A DNA stretch of 64,000 nt from Octopus vulgaris (lineage: Eukaryota), in NCBI GenBank assembly GCA_951406725.2, contig OX597825.1, positions 19,468,001 to 19,532,000 of the forward strand, written 5' to 3'. The translations under genes and the position numbers were made by a program. Shown here piece by piece: positions 1-57,349 of the stretch; the stretch's first letter is position 1; each line of letters starts with the position of its first letter. The notes below the pieces were generated by a model. The model did not search any database. It was not told the DNA's origin and was given only the letters and a program-made list of their open reading frames with translations.

Positions 1-407
1 TATATAGATTATTATAAACTGTAAACAAATTTTCAGACATTACTTTGTTTCTAACATAAACTCTAATTAACACTCTATCGACAAAAAAGTATATGCATTT
101 ATTTTTTTTCTATATCTGCGTTTACCTATAAATCTATTTTCAGTTTTTGTATATACGTTTTTCCTCAATCTCCACCTCCATCTCTACGTCATTTCATAAA
201 CTTTTATCTGTGTGTCTGTGTGTACATGTGTGTGCACGCGTATCTGAGTGCGTGTGCGTGAGTGGATTGTATGTGTGTTGGTGTAGATACGTATATTTAA
301 AAAGCTCACTTAGCAATTATGGCATTCTCTATTGGTTCGATCTTGTGCAATGGGATCTTGTGCAATAGTTATTTTCATCTTTTACATTTTTTGGTTACCA
401 TTGTCAA

Positions 408-8903: not shown

Positions 8904-9317
8904 GTGGCGAGCTGGCAGAAACGTTAGCGCGACGGGCGAAATGCTTAGCGATATTTCGTCTGCCTCTACGTTCTGAGTTCAAATTCCGCCGAGGTCGACT
9001 TTGCCTTTCATCCTTTCGGGGTCGATTAAATAAGCACCAGTTTCACACTGGGGTCGATATAATCGACTTATTCCGTTTGTCTGTCCTTGTTTGTCCTCTC
9101 AATGTTTAGCCCCTTGTGGGTAGTAATGAAGTATATATTTCGTCTGCCGTTACGTTCTGAGTTCAAATTCCGCCGAGGTCGATTTTGCCTTTCATCCTTT
9201 CGGGGTCGATTAAACAAGTACCAGTTACGGACTGGGGTAGATATAATCGGCTTAATCCGTTTGTCCCTCCTTGTTTGTCCCCTCTGTGTGTAGCCCCTTG
9301 TGGTCAGTAAAGAAATA
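8904..9317 (+). mobile_element. SINE family A tandem dimer
   Basis: A full unit followed by a second unit that restarts at the internal TATTTCGTCTGCCGTTACG (~9136). Confidence 0.9.
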
Positions 9318-9382: not shown

Positions 9383-9632
9383 TGTGGAGGCACGTGGCTT
9401 AGTGGTTAGTGTGTTGGACTCATGATCGCAAGATTGTGGTTTCGATTCCTGGACCGGGCGATGCGTTTTTTTCTGGAGCAAAACACTCTATTTCACATTG
9501 CTCTAGTCTACTCAGCTAGCAAAAATGAGTAATCCTGCGACGGATCGGCGTACTGTCCAGGTAGAGAATTTATACACCACTTAAACAGGGAAACCGGCCA
9601 TTATGAGAATGGTACGGCTCGAAAAGAAAACA
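9383..9632 (+). mobile_element. SINE family B
   Basis: TGTGGAGGCACGTGGCTTAGTGGTTAG (A box), GGTTTCGATTCC (B box), CORE-like GAGCAAAACACT..CACATTGCTC..CTCAGCT..AAAATGAGT. Confidence 0.88.
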
Positions 9633-10726
9633 TTTCTTCTTTTGTTTCAACCTAGTATTCCTTTGTTCCTTTTACGTAGAAGAGTCCTCAGAGAATTAAT
9701 TTTATACTGAGGAATTTGCTAGCACACATGCATAGCTATGAACATTTTCGACATTAGTGTGTAACATTGTGCTCACAGAAGTCACGGTATGAATGTCTAT
9801 CTAGTTATTTAAATATTTCAGATTGATAATGGTGATTATGTTATTATTTTAGGATTTCAGTTCGCTTGCAACCCAGGACATTACATTTGAAACCGTCACG
9901 TTTAATTCTACATCTTTTGTTTTTCAGAAGTTACGATGAAACTTCGACGATATTTGGCTGAGAGTTTCAATGGGACGAACGACGGTTTAGAATATTAGAT
10001 ATTATTTTCCTTCCTGCGTAATACACGTCAAGCGAGCCTATGGTAAGATACTTTACACTTGTGATCATCCTCACATATATTTAATGCTAGATAGCAGAGA
10101 AGTAGGCAGGAGGCATGTCCATTAACTCTAGTTTGACATTAATATATCTGGTCTGTACAAATTACATCCGAACTCTGTAATGATATATCTCCGGACAGTG
10201 TATACTTTACAATTTCAGTTTTCTTTATATATATATACCAGTGTAATTCATAGATAAATAATAAATTCCATGTGTTATCTCTTCCTATCTGATTATACCT
10301 GCTTTCGAAGTATCCAGTATATTGCTCAACATAGCGCTAATAACTAAAGATCGAGAACTATCAGGTTTCTACTTGATAATTTTGATGTACTACTTCAGTT
10401 TACTCCTATATTTCCTATATAAATGAGTTATATTCATATTATTGCCGACGTTCAGTAGAATCCAATATGTAAATAACAACGCTTGTGTTAATCAATGCAT
10501 GGTCCATATCATCATTTTTAGACACGTGGTAAACCTGAACAAGCAGATCAAATCATCTAGCGTGCTTCAATCGTCGACGTCTCTCTTATTCTGCTTTTTT
10601 TTCAGACTTACATTTTAGTATTGTTTGCTCCTTTAAATGCAGTACGATAGGATTTGATGGATATTTGGTTGTGTTTTCTAGCATATCAAACAGCTATTTC
10701 TGATACTTTACTATTGGTAATCTACT

Positions 10727-11124
10727 ATTCTTTTCTAATCTAGGTACAAAGCGCGAAATTTCGGGGGAGGGCGCCAGTCGATTATATCGACCCCAGTACA
10801 CAACTGGTACTTAATTTATCGACTCCGAAACGATAAAAGGCAAAATCGACATCGGCGTAATTTGAACTCAGAACGTAACAGCAGGCGAAATACCTATTTC
10901 TTTACTACCCACAAGGGGTTAAACACAGAGAGGACAAACAAGGACAGGCAAACGGATTAAGTCGATTATATCGACTCCAGTGCGTACCTGGTACTTAATT
11001 TATCGACCCAGAAAGAATGGAAGGCAAAGTCGACCTCGGCTTAATTTGAACTCAGAACGTAACGGCAGACGAAATACGGCTACGCATTTTGCCCAGCGTG
11101 CTAACGTTTCTGCCAGCTCACCGC
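10727..11124 (-). mobile_element. SINE family A dimer (tail-type 1 unit followed by tail-type 2 unit)
   Basis: Reverse strand: head, core, tail 1 ending AAAGAAATAGGTATTTCGCCTG, second core, tail 2 CCCTCCCCGAAATTTC..CCTAGATTAGAAAAGAAT. Confidence 0.9.
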
Positions 11125-17637: not shown

Positions 17638-18222
17638 AGGCACTGAGCTGGTAGAAACGCTAGCACGACGGGCGGAATGATCAGCGGTACTTCGTATGCC
17701 GTTACTTTCTGAGTTCAAATTCCGCCGAGTTCGACTTTGCCTTTCCCCCTTTCGGCGTCGATAAATTAAGTACCAGTTACGCACTGGGTTCGATGTAATC
17801 GACTTAATCCGTTTGTCTGTTCTTGTTTGTCCTCTCTGTGTTTAGCCCCTTGTGGGTAGTAAAGAAATAGGTATTTCGTCTGTCGTTACATTCTGTGTTC
17901 AAATTCTGTTCAGGTCGACTTTGCCTTTTATCCTTTCGGAGTCGATTAAATAAGTACCAGTTACGCACTGGGATCGATATAATCGACTTAATCCGTTTGT
18001 TTGTCCTTGTTTGTCCTCTCTGTGTTTAGCCCCTTGTGAGTAGCAAAGAAATAGGTATTTCGTGTGTCTTTACGTTCTGAGTTCAAATTCCGCCGAGGTC
18101 AACGTTGCTTTTCATCCTTTCAGGGTCGATAAATCAGGTACCAGTTGCGTACTGGCGTCGATCTAATTGACTGGCCCTCTTCCCCAAAATTTCAGGCTTT
18201 GTGCCTAGAGTAGAAACGAATA
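17638..18222 (+). mobile_element. SINE family A tandem trimer
   Basis: Three cores. Junctions AAAGAAATAGGTATTTCGT at ~17861-17879 and ~18046-18063. The last unit has the type-2 tail. Confidence 0.92.
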
Positions 18223-23131: not shown

Positions 23132-23785
23132 TTTGTACGGCCACACCTTGAATACTGCTGCCCACTGTGGTCTCCTCACACAAGACAAAACATCTCCAGA
23201 ATTGAGTCACCCCAGAGGGCTCTCACTAAACAAATTGAAGGCATGGCTGCTCTCGATTATTGGGATCGCCTTAAAGCCTTGAAACTTTACTCCCTCCAGC
23301 GTCGCCGTGAGCGGTACATCATTTGTACGATGTGGAAAATATACCGCCAACTTTGCCCAAACGACCTAAACATTAGCTTCAAGGTTCATCCAAGACTTGG
23401 ACCACGGGCTATACGTCCCCTGCCAAATTCAAGATCACAACATACATGTACACTGCAACATAATTTCTTTTCCTCAACAGGCCCTGCCCTATTTAACATT
23501 GTCCCGAGGGAGATCAAAGAGGAAAAGGATCCCATCAACTTCAAACAGAGTCTGGATAGATTCCTTCAAAGAATACCAGATAAGCCACCCATAATTGGAT
23601 ACAACTCACCCAACAAGAACTCACTACTTGAACAAAACTGGATACAACTCACCCAACAAGAACTCACTACTTGAACAAAACTTGACTTAAACATGATTCG
23701 AATAATTCTATCAGGTGGTGCTATTAAGTTAGACATGGCCTGGACCAATCTCTGGTCGAAACATATCTAAGTTTTCTAAGTTTTC
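23132..23785 (+). mobile_element. 5'-truncated CR1-group LINE 3' end (RT C-terminal region + 3' UTR)
   Basis: One open frame: FVRPHLEYCCPLWSPHTRQNISRIESPQRALTKQIEGMAALDYWDRLKALKLYSLQRRRER...FNIVPREIK...FKQSLDRFLQRIPDKP. Ends in short tandem CTAAGTTTT repeats. Confidence 0.9.
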
Positions 23786-26360: not shown

Positions 26361-26487
26361 AAAAATGTTTGTAAAGCAAAATGAGCTCCCTATAGCTGTT
26401 TTCAAAAAACCTTTCAAAAATCTTTTCAAAAAACCTTTCAAAAATTTTTCGAGAATTTTTATGACAATTTATTTCATTAAAATTTTA

Positions 26488-26590
26488 TTATTATTATTAT
26501 TATTATTATTATGGTCACTGATCTGGAATCGAACTCAGAATCTTGGATTTAGTAGCCTGCGCTCTTAACCACTAAGCCATGTGCCCATAT
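26488..26590 (-). mobile_element. tRNA-like head + (AAT)n linker of the hammerhead-bearing element family
   Basis: Minus strand GGGCACATGGCTTAGTGGTTAAGAGCGCAGGCTACTAAATCCAAGATTCTGAGTTCGATTCCAGATCAGTGACC(ATA)n, homologous to 55886-55985. Confidence 0.88.
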
Positions 26591-26594
26591 GAAA

Positions 26595-26890
26595 TTACTG
26601 TGTGATGTTCCTCTACCCTTATTTTGAGGGGGCGGCATGTTTCACCTTTTTATAACCTACCACAGCTGCAAGGGATGGAGTGCGCGCAGTTTTTGATCAT
26701 ATTCTATTCTACTGCTGCTTTTACCCGAAGGAGATATTAGCGAAGTGTTGTGTTACTCTTGAATACTGTCCTGATGTCATATGGGCCGCAGAACTTTTGT
26801 ATCTTTTCGGAGAGGCCTTTCATATAGGGTAGACAGACTGCATACAGTTTATTAGTTTCATCCCCTCTGTTCTTCATAATTGGAGTAGAT
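26595..26890 (-). pseudogene. Penelope-like retroelement linker + GIY-YIG endonuclease remnant
   Basis: Single frame with three stops: VCLPYMKGLSEKIQKFCGPYDIRTVFKSNTTLR*YLLRVK..KNCAHSIPCSCGRL*KGETCRPLKIRVEEH. It fits the LPY..G.SE.I...VY.IPC.C...Y.GET.R.L..R..EH pattern of Penelope-like elements. Confidence 0.9.
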
Positions 26891-27199
26891 AATAGTTGCT
26901 AAATAGATTGTTAATGAGCTTGATCATATTCTTTGATAATTTATTTGTGTATTAATGGAAACCAATTATAATTTAACTAAATTTCGTTGAGTACTCTTCA
27001 GCAAATATTCAGCGCGAATATAGATGATATACATGTATAACCAATAGATAATGCCTTTTTTAAACACTTCTTTTATTTTTCAAACTTAAGATAAACAAAG
27101 TTAATTTTTAATCTAAAATATGCTCTCCTTCATTTTCCACAATGCTCTTCCATCTGTCTGGTAGGCTTGTTAGACACCTCTTCCAAATTCAGTTGCTCG

Positions 27200-40314: not shown

Positions 40315-40616
40315 GATTCTCCATTTGATTCTCCATTTGATTCTCCATTTGTACGTGGCGTGCAGTTGGTTTCGAACCTCATATGTGGCTAACCAACTTA
40401 GTAGCTTTACTTTCGTTGCAGTGCCGGCAAGAAGACTGGTGGTCTGGATAACGTCTTTTAATATTGATTCTCCATTTGATTCTCCATTTGATTCTCCATT
40501 TGTACGTGGCGTGCAGTTGGTTTCGAACCTCATATGTGGCTAACCAACTTAGTAGCTTTACTTTCGTTGCAGTGCCGGCAAGAAGACTGGTGGTCTGGAT
40601 AACGTCTTTTAATATT
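40315..40616 (+). repeat. Exact 151-bp tandem duplication, each unit beginning with (GATTCTCCATTT)x3
   Basis: Units 40315-40465 and 40466-40616 read as identical. Confidence 0.93.
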
Positions 40617-48544: not shown

Positions 48545-49685
48545 TATTATGGTGAGTCAAATGTTTTGCAATGTTTTAGTTACTCCACCGAGGTCGACTT
48601 TGCCTCCCCATAAATTTCTGCCTTGTGCCTAGAGTAGAAAAGAATATTTTGGTTACTCCACCGAGGTTGACTGCCTTTCATCCTTTCGGGGTCGATAAAT
48701 TAAGTACCAGTTGCGAACTGGGGTCGATATAATCGACTAGCCCCTCCCCCAAAATTTCGGAACTTGTGCTTAGAGTAGAAAAGAATATTTTGGTTACTCC
48801 ACCGAGGTCGACTTTGCCTTTCATCTTTTCAGGGTCGATAAATTAAGTGCCAGTTGCGTACAGGGATATAATCGACTTGCCCCACCTCCCAAAAAAATTT
48901 CGGGCCTTGTGCCTAGAGTAGAAAAGAATATTTTTGGTAACTTATTTCATTTATTCGTCAATTCACAACAAAAGTAGCTTAGCATTTAAAGTAAAATCCA
49001 TCGTGTTGTACAGTCTGAAGCCATCGTTCTGTTAGTCCTTTGATCCCAAGCTGATAGCAGTTCTTGTTCTCTCAAACAAAGAACTCCTTCACTGAAGTTT
49101 CGACCTTCCGAACCTGTTGTCAAACATGGCTGTTTCGAACTCAAGGTGATGCTCTGCGCCTGGTGGAACTATTGAGGAAGCAAAATAGAGGAAAGAAATC
49201 ATTACGAGTTCGTTACGGATGGTTGAACCATCAATGCTAATCTGTACCCCGAACAGCTGAAGTGGATCTATACCCATGAACCGTGCCGCAACAATACCCG
49301 CAATGCTTAACAGAAAGCGAGCTATGCAGCTGCAAGAAAATGCAAGACCTCATATTTCTCGAATGATCAGGAATAAACTCACGGAGCCAAAAGGAATTGA
49401 GCTGATGCCACACCCAGCATATAGCCCGGCACTAGCTCTTTTGAATTATTACTTGTTTTGATCCATGGCTCACTTTCTTTGCTCGCGGCGCTTCGTCAGC
49501 CAAAAAGTAGTTGAAGAAGAACTGACATCTGCGTTGGATCAAAAAACTGGGAGGAGATAAAGGCAACTTCAGACCGTACAACACGATGGCTTTTACTCTG
49601 AAGGCTAAGCTACTTTTGTAGTAATTTGAAGAATAATGCAAATAAGTTACCAAAACACTGCAAGACGTTTTGCCTCAACACAGTA
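48545..49685. mobile_element. Mariner-derived fold-back element: 3' part of a mariner duplicated in inverted orientation
   Basis: The ends TATTATGGTGAGTCAAATGTTTTGCAATGTTTTAGTTAC and GTTACCAAAACACTGCAAGACGTTTTGCCTCAACACAGTA are inverted matches. 48935-49020 pairs with 49567-49655. The + strand encodes KVMLCAWWNY..HYEF..TINANLYPEQL..LQENARPH..IELMPHPAYSPALA..YYLF*SMAHFL. Confidence 0.88.
48584..48931 (+). mobile_element. Three tandem 5'-truncated SINE family A (type-2 tail) units inside the mariner TIR
   Basis: Each unit starts TCCACCGAGGT(C/T)GACT and ends CTAGAGTAGAAAAGAATA (TTAGAG in the second unit); units are separated by the host motif TTTTGGTTAC. Confidence 0.88.
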
Positions 49686-55217: not shown

Positions 55218-55684
55218 GTCTAGACGGACAAACTGTATAAGGTGTTGCCTTGGAGGGGGAGAGATATGCGCGAGCATGATTAATGAATAATATCCAAAAG
55301 ATATGAGTTTTGAAACACGTTGCTATTCTTCTCTCTAGCCCGGTGACAAAACCTCAACATACAAAATTTTGACAAAGAGAGATTCGAAAAGTTACGATCG
55401 TGCTATTCTTTGTGTTTTGAGATATTCTACCTTGGATTGGTGTATTTAATGTACGCATCATATTTCAGGTTAAATAATTGTTATTTGTATTTTTGCTATA
55501 GTTTGTAAAATGTGTAAAGAGGAAAGTAACAGTTTCGATATTCTTCTACCTTCACCGCACAGGGAACTTTTCTTTTTAATTAAATTAATTAATTAATTTC
55601 TGCAGGAACATTGCATAAAATCATTTGGTCTTAATGTACATTATTTACATTTGACGGATATTTGTCTTCATCTTGTTTGTTGTT

Positions 55685-55730
55685 AACACAACGTTTCGGC
55701 TGATATACCCTCCAGCCTTCATCAGGTGTC
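55685..55730 (-). ncRNA. Minimal type I hammerhead ribozyme motif
   Basis: Minus strand GACAC-CTGATGA-A-GGCTG-GAGGGTATAT-CAGCC-GAAA-C-GT-T-GTGTT: stem I GACAC/GTGTT, perfect 5-bp stem II, loop-less palindromic stem III (ACGT), GTT triplet. Confidence 0.85.
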
Positions 55731-56052
55731 TTGGGGAAATTTCGAACCTGGGTTCTCATTCCTAAGGTATTTTTCGGTGTTATTCTTCGTATTATTATTG
55801 TTATTACTATTATATTCAGGTCACTGCTTGGAATCAAACTCGGAATCTTGGAGTTAGTAGCTCTCGCTCTGAACCACTATGTCACGGGCATATGACATAG
55901 TGGTTAAGAGCGCGAGTTACTAACCCCAAGATTCAAAGTTCGATTCCAGGCAGTGACCTAACTAATAATAATAATAATAATAATAATGATGATGATGATG
56001 ATGACATCGAAAAATACCTTAGGAATGAGAACACAGGTTCGAAATTGCCCAA

Positions 56053-56098
56053 GACACCTGATGAAAGCTAGAGGGTATATCAGCCGAAACGTTGTGTT
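56053..56098 (+). ncRNA. Minimal type I hammerhead ribozyme motif (second arm; stem II mutated)
   Basis: GACAC-CTGATGA(56058-56064)-AAGCTAGAGGGTATATCAGCC-GAAA(56086-56089)-CGTT-GTGTT. Confidence 0.8.
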
Positions 56099-57349
56099 AA
56101 CAACAAACAAGATGAGGACAAATATCCGTCAAATGTAAATAATGTACATAATTCCTCATCTCTTAAATATAGAACTGTATTGGTCTTAAGGTTTATAATA
56201 ATGACGCCAGCATGTTTCGAACCAGTACCACACGTTTGTGACGCCAGTGGTGATGATTTTGCACTTAAGGAAAATGAAAGGTGAACATCAACTTTTATCC
56301 GATACGACTTCAGCAAGTATCGAAACCTCATTGGTCTGCTTGTATTTACTAACTTTTACTTACTACAGTAAACGAAATGTGATGAGATACGTTTCAAAAT
56401 ATATCTGTTTTTGCTACTAAATTTTCAAAGACTTGCACCAACTTGTTAAGGTTGAATTAAGCAACTCCAGGCAGGTGTTATACGTAATTGAAATGGTTAT
56501 AGAATAAAGGGAGTTACGGCATCGATAACATGCTGATGTATTGATGAAAGAAAGATGAAAGTCCTGCTTGCGTGTAACTCAGCTGTTAACAGATGTGCGG
56601 CCATTGACAACTATAGAACAAAGTTCACAATAGTGAATCAAAGCTAGGAAATTAAATTTATCTTTAGTGTTTATTCCTCTCATCACATATGTTATTCAGA
56701 ATTATCTCTTTACGATCTTCACAAATACGTGTAGTATTTATAATGAACTCTGGGTAGATATTTACTAATACCTCATCTAAATCTGTTTTGAATATCTCGT
56801 ATCTATTTTTGCTTGTCTATATTTTTCAATGCACTTTGACGAAGTACGTCTAAGTTATTTGCGAGTGGACGGGAGAGGAGAGGAGTTTATCAAATCCACC
56901 CCAGTAATGTACTAGTAGTAGTAGTAATAGTTATTTTATAGATTGAGTATGCCTGCGAATAAATGGTATTTGTTGTGATTTGCACTTAGAATGTGGTGGG
57001 TGAGGGTTTCTTACTGCCAGTTTGAAAACTCAATCTTTCCTGCATAATTTACATAATATTGATTTCTAACTTCGATGAAAGAACACATACTTAACTTAGT
57101 GGGAAGAAGCATTTCACCATAAATAACAAAGTACTTGACTGGACTTTATTTCATCGACGTCGAAGGCTAAATGCAAAACTGAGCTCGGTGTAACTTGACT
57201 TAATATAACAAAGGTCCGTAACAAGACACCCCACAGCATTCTGTTCTATGCTATCAATTCTACACCTTAACTACACTTATTAATCCAAACCACCTTCGTA
57301 ATATTCTCATGAGCCGGGGGTTTTAAAAGCAGGCTTTGGCATTCTAAAA

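Follow-up and report, generated by a model that had tools for sequence, protein, structure and literature searches.

Retrotransposons that code for protein usually rely on RNA polymerase II (Pol II) or on being co-transcribed by Pol I, and Pol III serves only the short non-coding ones. We examined a window of 64,000 nt from Octopus vulgaris (contig OX597825.1, positions 19,468,001 to 19,532,000 of the forward strand) that contains copies of a Penelope retrotransposon family whose end repeat opens with a tRNA-like head. Poseidon_Ac of the green anole (PMC11167929) and Pen2a of Adineta (PMC3846280) have the same single open reading frame (ORF) of about 835-840 aa, with a reverse transcriptase (RT) and, at the C-terminus, a GIY-YIG endonuclease. 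In these Penelope/Poseidon elements the pseudo-long terminal repeat (pseudo-LTR, pLTR) also overlaps the first codons, and the cut site of the hammerhead ribozyme lies downstream of the start codon (PMC11167929, PMC3846280). The optional tail of 30-40 nt and the inverted 5' repeats with a palindrome are common to both as well (PMC11167929, PMC3846280). Unlike in these elements, the octopus pLTR begins with a head that has A and B boxes, followed by an (AAT)n linker, and its unit lacks any run of four T (T4). The described Penelope promoters are of the Pol II type (TATA/Inr, internal or intron-overlapping).

Four other systems resemble parts of this arrangement. The schistosome repeats Sm-alpha and Sj-alpha (PMC6765202) place a Pol III promoter ahead of a type I hammerhead in a short repeat. 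They are non-coding tandem units, and the part of PMC6765202 used here describes no autonomous parent with the same head, whereas the octopus head belongs to the coding element itself and its hammerhead is minimal. Animal non-LTR retrozymes (PMC7229834; bioRxiv 10.64898/2026.07.22.740005) are short hammerhead-bearing derivatives of pLTRs with many monomers, as are the short octopus repeats. They are defined as tandem units of 170-400 nt that give circular RNA, with no Pol III promoter described in the part of PMC7229834 used here. The octopus repeats, in contrast, are mostly solo or head-to-head, and a direct tandem flank was found at 2 of 30 sampled heads rather than the head-to-tail tandems of a retrozyme. 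The TRIMp3 elements Cassandra, Helenus and Ajax (PMC10886601) have a Pol III promoter derived from a small RNA in the terminal repeat, proposed to have come from a short interspersed element (SINE) insertion. These are non-autonomous LTR elements of <1.3 kb, whereas the octopus carrier is autonomous, 2.65 kb long and non-LTR; in place of two LTRs, a primer-binding site, a polypurine tract and no coding capacity it has coding Penelope anatomy. Finally, tRNA-derived SINEs (SINE2) have the same A/B-box head, a start at about tRNA +1, thousands of copies and a 3' part recognised by an RT. The octopus short copies differ in that their 3' part is not borrowed but is the end repeat of the coding element, and in that insertion is Penelope-type and not of the type of long interspersed elements (LINEs). 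The family has the tRNA-related head of a SINE with both boxes, but it is neither non-coding nor separate from its autonomous partner.

The sequence-only reading of the window singled out 26488-26890, where a GIY-YIG remnant lies next to a tRNA-like head, and proposed that a tRNA-headed ribozyme element had become linked to a Penelope partner. The link is real but there are not two partners. A query with the N-terminal part of the ORF gave 30 loci from 40 matches. A query with the junction gave 42 matches from the 40 candidates that were scored out of 3,016, and 30 of these were taken as loci. The family majority sequence, built from 21 pieces, has a unit of 2,649 nt in the order head, (AAT)n, 20 nt, ATG, hammerhead, RT and GIY-YIG ORF, 29 nt, head, (AAT)n, hammerhead, tail. 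It has a single open frame of 835 codons, which starts at an ATG 20 nt past the linker; the hammerhead falls within its first 25 codons. Aligned intact copies run from the ORF stop through 29 nt into the head, (AAT)n, hammerhead and tail. In 22 of the 29 other junction-query loci the remainder of GIY-YIG is kept and followed by the head, and 18 of these 22 continue into the hammerhead; of the other loci, 5 keep that remainder without a head, 1 is partial and 1 (L002) has a deletion similar to that of the flagged copy. Since 22 of 29 loci pass from GIY-YIG to the stop, 29 nt and then the head, the head must be a regular part of the family's pLTR. At the other end, 2 of the 30 N-terminal-query loci have a head, hammerhead and tail on the same strand leading into the ORF. 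One copy (L064) starts at a head and has a second one after its ORF, and another (L063) begins at +4. The autonomous element could thus be rebuilt, and its terminal repeat contains both the tRNA-like head and the region 56005-56179. The segment 55634-56179 is a head-to-head pair of the family's solo repeat (Table 1).

Table 1. Coordinates in the window of the Penelope-derived features (ORF, open reading frame; pLTR, pseudo-long terminal repeat).
Feature	Position	Strand	Basis
Decayed Penelope ORF remnant with stops: end of RT thumb, linker, N-terminal half of GIY-YIG	26598..26933	-	family positions 1916-2266; 87% over 352 nt to family majority sequence
Deletion junction, 260 nt gone: C-terminal half of GIY-YIG, stop codon, most of spacer	26597..26598	-	alignment to family
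Final 11 nt of the 29-nt spacer from ORF stop to head	26587..26597	-	family alignment
tRNA-like head of 3' pLTR; A box 26579-26569, B box 26536-26525	26513..26586	-	sequence; 85% to 55886-55986
(AAT)n linker, end of flagged copy; hammerhead and tail absent	26485..26512	-	sequence; family alignment
Inverted arm of solo pLTR pair: head from +13, linker, hammerhead 55730-55685, ends at short-tail site	55634..55879	-	89% over 246 nt to family majority
Solo pLTR and tail: head 55886-55960, (AAT/GAT)n, ORF start codon 56025, ends at long-tail site	55883..56179	+	86% over 298 nt; 3' end clusters
Minimal type I hammerhead within first codons of ORF; predicted cut after 56093	56053..56098	+	read from sequence against the description in part of PMC4209133

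The anatomy is that of a Penelope element in other respects. A single ORF encodes a telomerase-like RT (Pfam RVT_1, E 1.8e-8) and, at its C-terminus, a GIY-YIG with the CxC/H/H pattern. The GIY region aligns to an anole protein with E 3e-19, and the Pfam GIY-YIG profile did not match the copy that was scanned. The pLTRs are direct or inverted with the optional 30-40-nt tail, copy 3' ends falling in two clusters about 30 nt apart (+230..244 and +260..274), and they contain a motif of the minimal type I hammerhead, a predicted ribozyme. Over the RT-thumb part the 836-aa anole protein is 39% identical. This identity, the short linker without a zinc finger and the domain order point to a Poseidon-type Penelope. 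The closest named relatives of the ORF are proteins of the barnacle Amphibalanus amphitrite (the P0012 cluster, 53%). Other relatives in the P0001-P0015 set reach 59-65%, while proteins of other animals stand at about 40-46%, which may reflect horizontal transfer. The C-terminus (L008, L071; P0001, P0006, P0010, P0021) has Ser-Arg/Lys/Gln-Pro-Ser where the anole endonuclease has Asn-Arg; this is not decay, since it is common to the whole subclade. The family looks inactive now: identity of its long copies to the majority is 83-96%, with a median of 92%, and no open frame in 150 matches exceeds 569 codons.

It is worth considering what the head is. The family head is co-linear with host tRNAs, with 45-47 of 75 positions identical to tRNA-Arg, Ala, Thr and Cys (z 5.9-7.7 against the shuffled head) when ten anticodon classes were sampled. 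What we take to be its A and B boxes, going by the general consensus, are both intact in the family majority while the tRNA stems have decayed. All head matches above 17 bits belonged to the Penelope family itself. No T4 follows the head, which has neither the cloverleaf nor the T-run terminator of a functional tRNA gene. ARAGORN found no tRNA in the window or in four head loci, and Rfam at its gathering threshold found neither a tRNA nor a hammerhead in the same sequences. Single-strand folding of head and hammerhead gave z of -1.2 to +0.8, which is uninformative for a ribozyme of the dimer type. A tRNA-Thr(AGT) was considered as the parent; the pattern was found in 30 places, but Thr scored below Arg and Ala. 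Heads of abundant local SINEs were considered as a source too; at 8-13 bits they scored much as the tRNAs did, and derivation from them is unsupported. Heads of other tRNA-derived SINE families lie at 9389, 16255 and 30633 of the window and bear no more than a remote likeness to the Penelope head (9-12 bits). The family A box overlaps a two-codon upstream frame, Met-Ala-stop, at head positions +7..+15, and the corresponding region of the window (55892-55900) is mutated. Clusters of tRNA-Thr(AGT) genes lie at C1:140.99-141.29 Mb, with Thr(TGT) among them, and at C7:86.74-86.81 Mb. At L271 (C12:25267077-25270148) ARAGORN reports tRNA-like genes with the rare anticodons ACA (Cys) and ACT (Ser) beside tRNA-Cys(GCA); these are probably decayed copies.

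Pol III terminates at runs of at least four T. The sense strand of the 2,649-nt unit has 0 T4 against 31 runs of four A. A synonymous permutation predicts 2.9 T4 (P=0.024) and positional base frequencies predict 4.6 (P=0.0025). The zero is unchanged on a pile-up of 494 segments. As a control, a Penelope family of the same genome with a CCAAT/CRE promoter and equal T content has 8-9 T4 in 5 of 5 intact 781-codon ORFs. In 8 metagenome relatives there are three long ORFs, with 8, 12 and 8 T4; no tRNA-like head was visible in the short sequence past their stops. None of the listed non-family frames of 200 or more codons is free of T4. T4-making alleles among copies and the Phe content of homologues gave no clear signal. 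A second Poseidon family was sought as a closer control, and the 30 loci examined of 150 distant-query matches all proved to be the same family. A Pfam GIY-YIG search for control families returned other clades. The control family itself (L143-L147, e.g. C6:133344000-133349000) is young and Penelope-like, with many intact 781-codon RT and GIY-YIG frames and an end repeat of CCAAT/CRE repeats with a TATA-like word; the pLTR of the tRNA-headed family has no such array. It also has a second upstream frame of over 330-400 codons that overlaps the first in another frame, and two frames are unusual for the class.

The edge of the repeat lies where a type 2 promoter would place it. Exact 20-mers occur 9,734 times in the genome for the tail, 5,148 for the head, 896 for the spacer (57 nt upstream) and 903 for the ORF (167 nt further upstream). 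The counts step down at the edge of the head and are flat beyond it; about five-sixths of heads are solo, a ratio of solo to ORF-attached of about five to one. To sample 5' ends we took the first 30 exact matches to the head on C1, chosen without regard to where they begin. Of these, 24 start at -7..+8, 3 start within the head and another 3 begin farther upstream; a pair among the 30 has common flanks and may be one event. In a DNA run of another sample 72 contigs depart from the sequence exactly at +1 of the head, and the non-inverted copies L064, L063, L165, L168, L172 and L179 start at -2..+4. A palindrome, TGCCC-AC-GGGCA, surrounds +1. In two copies, L169 and L177, other repeats are inserted in the (AAT)n linker and displace the hammerhead and tail by 400-490 nt. 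Insertions may thus favour the linker, as a hot spot, which may explain why some copies seem to end there.

We argue that a Pol III promoter was captured in the pLTR of this Penelope family and that it yielded SINE-like solo repeats and perhaps a full coding RNA. We consider this fairly probable. The sequence-only reading had offered capture of such a promoter by the terminal repeat as one of two options, and it fits, because 55886-56179 is the family pLTR plus tail. In this scenario Pol III would start a few bases ahead of the head. The Penelope RT would begin cDNA within the RNA at the tail site and copy back to the 5' end of the RNA; a start inside the RNA at the "tail" site has been shown for the anole element (PMC11167929). 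With the RT start in the tail, each solo repeat would retain both a promoter and an RT start site and could spread as a SINE does. The cDNA would fold back at the palindrome at the RNA 5' end, giving head-to-head pairs such as 55634-56179. As the unit lacks a T4 terminator, Pol III could also continue across the ORF in full copies. We hold such read-through to be somewhat less likely than not. A little more tentative is the full scenario of an autonomous coding retrotransposon once transcribed end to end by Pol III, with T4 purged from a 2.5-kb ORF, cap-free translation and solo repeats of its own that behaved like SINEs.

The hammerhead bears on translation. The motif at 56053-56098 was recognised by eye: stem I GACAC/GTGTT, the core CTGATGA, one unpaired A, stem II, GAAA and a palindromic AACGTT. 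The N-terminal peptide over it is common to the relative P0010 (45% over 260 aa). The predicted cut falls 70 nt past the start codon, so a Pol III messenger for the ORF would have to be translated without a cap and from uncut RNA. The (AAT)n(AAC)n leader ahead of the start codon presumably resembles the unstructured translation leaders of viruses. Ribozyme-linked cap-independent initiation has been reported for RNA viruses (in the part of PMC13725137 used here). In the Penelope family, unlike those viruses, the predicted cut would remove the start codon, as it does in the anole element.

Several points weigh against a captured promoter. The head folds into no cloverleaf, and the tRNA and SINE-head comparisons name no parent. 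G4 runs are also 0, where 1.0 (P=0.29, synonymous permutation) or 2.7 (P=0.048, positional base frequencies) are expected, and a general avoidance of runs may thus account for part of the T4 signal; the T4 test covers one family and its controls are distant. Counts of different 20-mers also vary with mutability. An inverted flank occurs at 19 of the 30 sampled heads, and starts at -7..-3 are indistinguishable from fold-back. Other Penelope families with Pol II-type motifs have 5' pLTR palindromes and head-to-head inversions (PMC3846280, in part); as a mark of the pLTR edge, the pile-up is therefore no specific sign of Pol III. Contigs from putative RNA runs cover the element, with no intron joint among the matches listed, but show neither start, strand nor level, and their greater depth over head and tail is given no weight. 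The promoter tested in Drosophila Penelope is a LINE-like internal promoter (PMC2377424, in the part used). Kojima holds that the processivity of Pol III keeps elements of this sort at or below about 1.3 kb (PMC10886601, likewise).

One can imagine a scenario where the products of Pol III are limited to the short RNAs of the solo repeats, a SINE-like satellite that arose in the pLTR, while the coding RNA comes from Pol II by tandems or read-through. A TATA-like word, TATAAG, covers the stop codon at -34..-29, and tandem copies would contain it; partial tandems do exist (L039, L055/L066), and the tandem is the expressed form in other Penelope elements (PMC6765202, in part). A capped mRNA would remove the translation problem, and the five-to-one excess of solo heads suits this scenario as well. 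It leaves the absence of T4 across the ORF unexplained, however, and both of the copies with a 5' head (2 of 30) begin at the head without the TATA-like word, which is found only upstream of the pLTR edge. There are no convincing splice signals for a 5' untranslated region intron of the kind in Pol II-driven Penelope and Chlamys. We find this scenario somewhat unlikely. Alternatively the head could be a passenger, an old piece of tRNA or SINE with no promoter role, and the 5' pile-up would come from the palindrome alone. Palindromic pLTR ends are general, inverted flanks are common (19 of 30), the tRNA stems have decayed and (AAT)n looks like a SINE tail. Yet both boxes are intact in the majority though the stems are lost, the pLTR edge is exactly at the expected type 2 start, non-inverted copies also start at -2..+4, and the absence of T4 would again have no reason. 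Taken together these make a passenger head improbable.

The flagged copy itself must be explained too. Its minus-strand frame reads ...AHSIPCSCGRL*KGETCRPLKIRVEEH in translation; from the end of its last His codon (26605) to the first base of the head (26586) there are 18 nt, in agreement with the gap of about 20 nt noticed from the sequence alone. The head and linker are indeed those of 55635-56179 (compared with 55886-55986, 85% identity in 102 nt with E 4.5e-27; compared with 55898-55792, 81% in 111 nt). The sequence does read as a direct fusion, but that is not the normal anatomy, and while the hammerhead element's head and (AAT)n are present, the copy stops after (AAT)n without a hammerhead of its own. 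By alignment the direct join is a 260-nt internal deletion in one decayed copy, which is ordinary decay. An insertion of a stand-alone tRNA-headed SINE into a Penelope fragment, or a one-time fusion of the two, could be imagined from the head 18 nt past a broken frame, from the (AAT)n end and from the 8 of 30 sampled heads that have no hammerhead tail within 430 nt. In 2 of these 8 the tail is found beyond an insertion of 400-490 nt. No target-site duplication surrounds the flagged head, and the 11 nt that precede it belong to the spacer of the element itself. The refutation that came with the sequence-only reading therefore fails, as does its notion of two partners. No head match above 17 bits comes from another element, and the head stands 29 nt past the ORF stop in most copies. 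Together with L064, with its head at both ends, and the 22 of 29 loci, this anatomy refutes a separate partner and leaves that model practically no chance. An RT template switch from a head-initiated RNA to the GIY-YIG of another, the second option of the sequence-only reading, or a deleted template that founded a small sublineage, would have a better claim. On a different contig L002 has a 263-nt deletion with breakpoints 2-5 nt from those of the flagged copy at both sides, and the right breakpoints (-11, -13) are close to the 5'-end cluster. Against this, most junction-query loci, of 30 in all, have lost stretches of 12-103 nt, microhomology-mediated deletions are described for Penelope copies (PMC3846280, in part), and the junction query itself selected for this join. 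The flagged copy and L002 have 2 of 32 derived substitutions in common, which is the background level; with no surplus of shared substitutions, a common subfamily of L001 and L002 is not supported. A template switch is not needed for the flagged join and we doubt that it occurred. The frequent 12-103-nt internal deletions across L001-L030 suggest frequent deletion repair in the Octopus genome.

The window has other repeats. A SINE-like unit of 143-184 bp occurs in tandem and inverted copies at 8906-9314, 10726-11122, 17644-18222 and 48606-48942. Perfect two-copy tandem duplications at 40315-40616 (151 bp) and 23596-23682 (43 bp) are recent or an assembly artefact.

In a literature search that took in neither subscription journals and supplements nor Repbase and Dfam, no Penelope whose pLTR holds a tRNA-type promoter was found. 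The term "Pol III" does not occur in the portions at hand of Craig 2021 (PMC8557442), Cervera 2014 (PMC4209133) and Cervera 2020 (PMC7229834). Li 2026 (bioRxiv 10.64898/2026.07.22.740005) derives retrozymes from pLTRs, and the corresponding portion does not mention Pol III. According to a paper of 2024, in the part of it used here, Pol II is the polymerase that the autonomous partners of Pol III elements must use (PMC10886601). In a Penelope whose own end repeat holds a tRNA-type promoter, the border between LINE and SINE becomes indistinct within one sequence, and such an element shows a possible birth route for repeats that combine Pol III with a hammerhead. Annotation will wrongly label thousands of the solo repeats SINEs or tRNA pseudogenes. 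If the end-to-end Pol III reading is true, the family gives a direct origin model for elements like Sm-alpha. If the whole ORF was read by Pol III it would be a natural 2.6-kb Pol III messenger, and cap-independent translation in Penelope would be directly testable.
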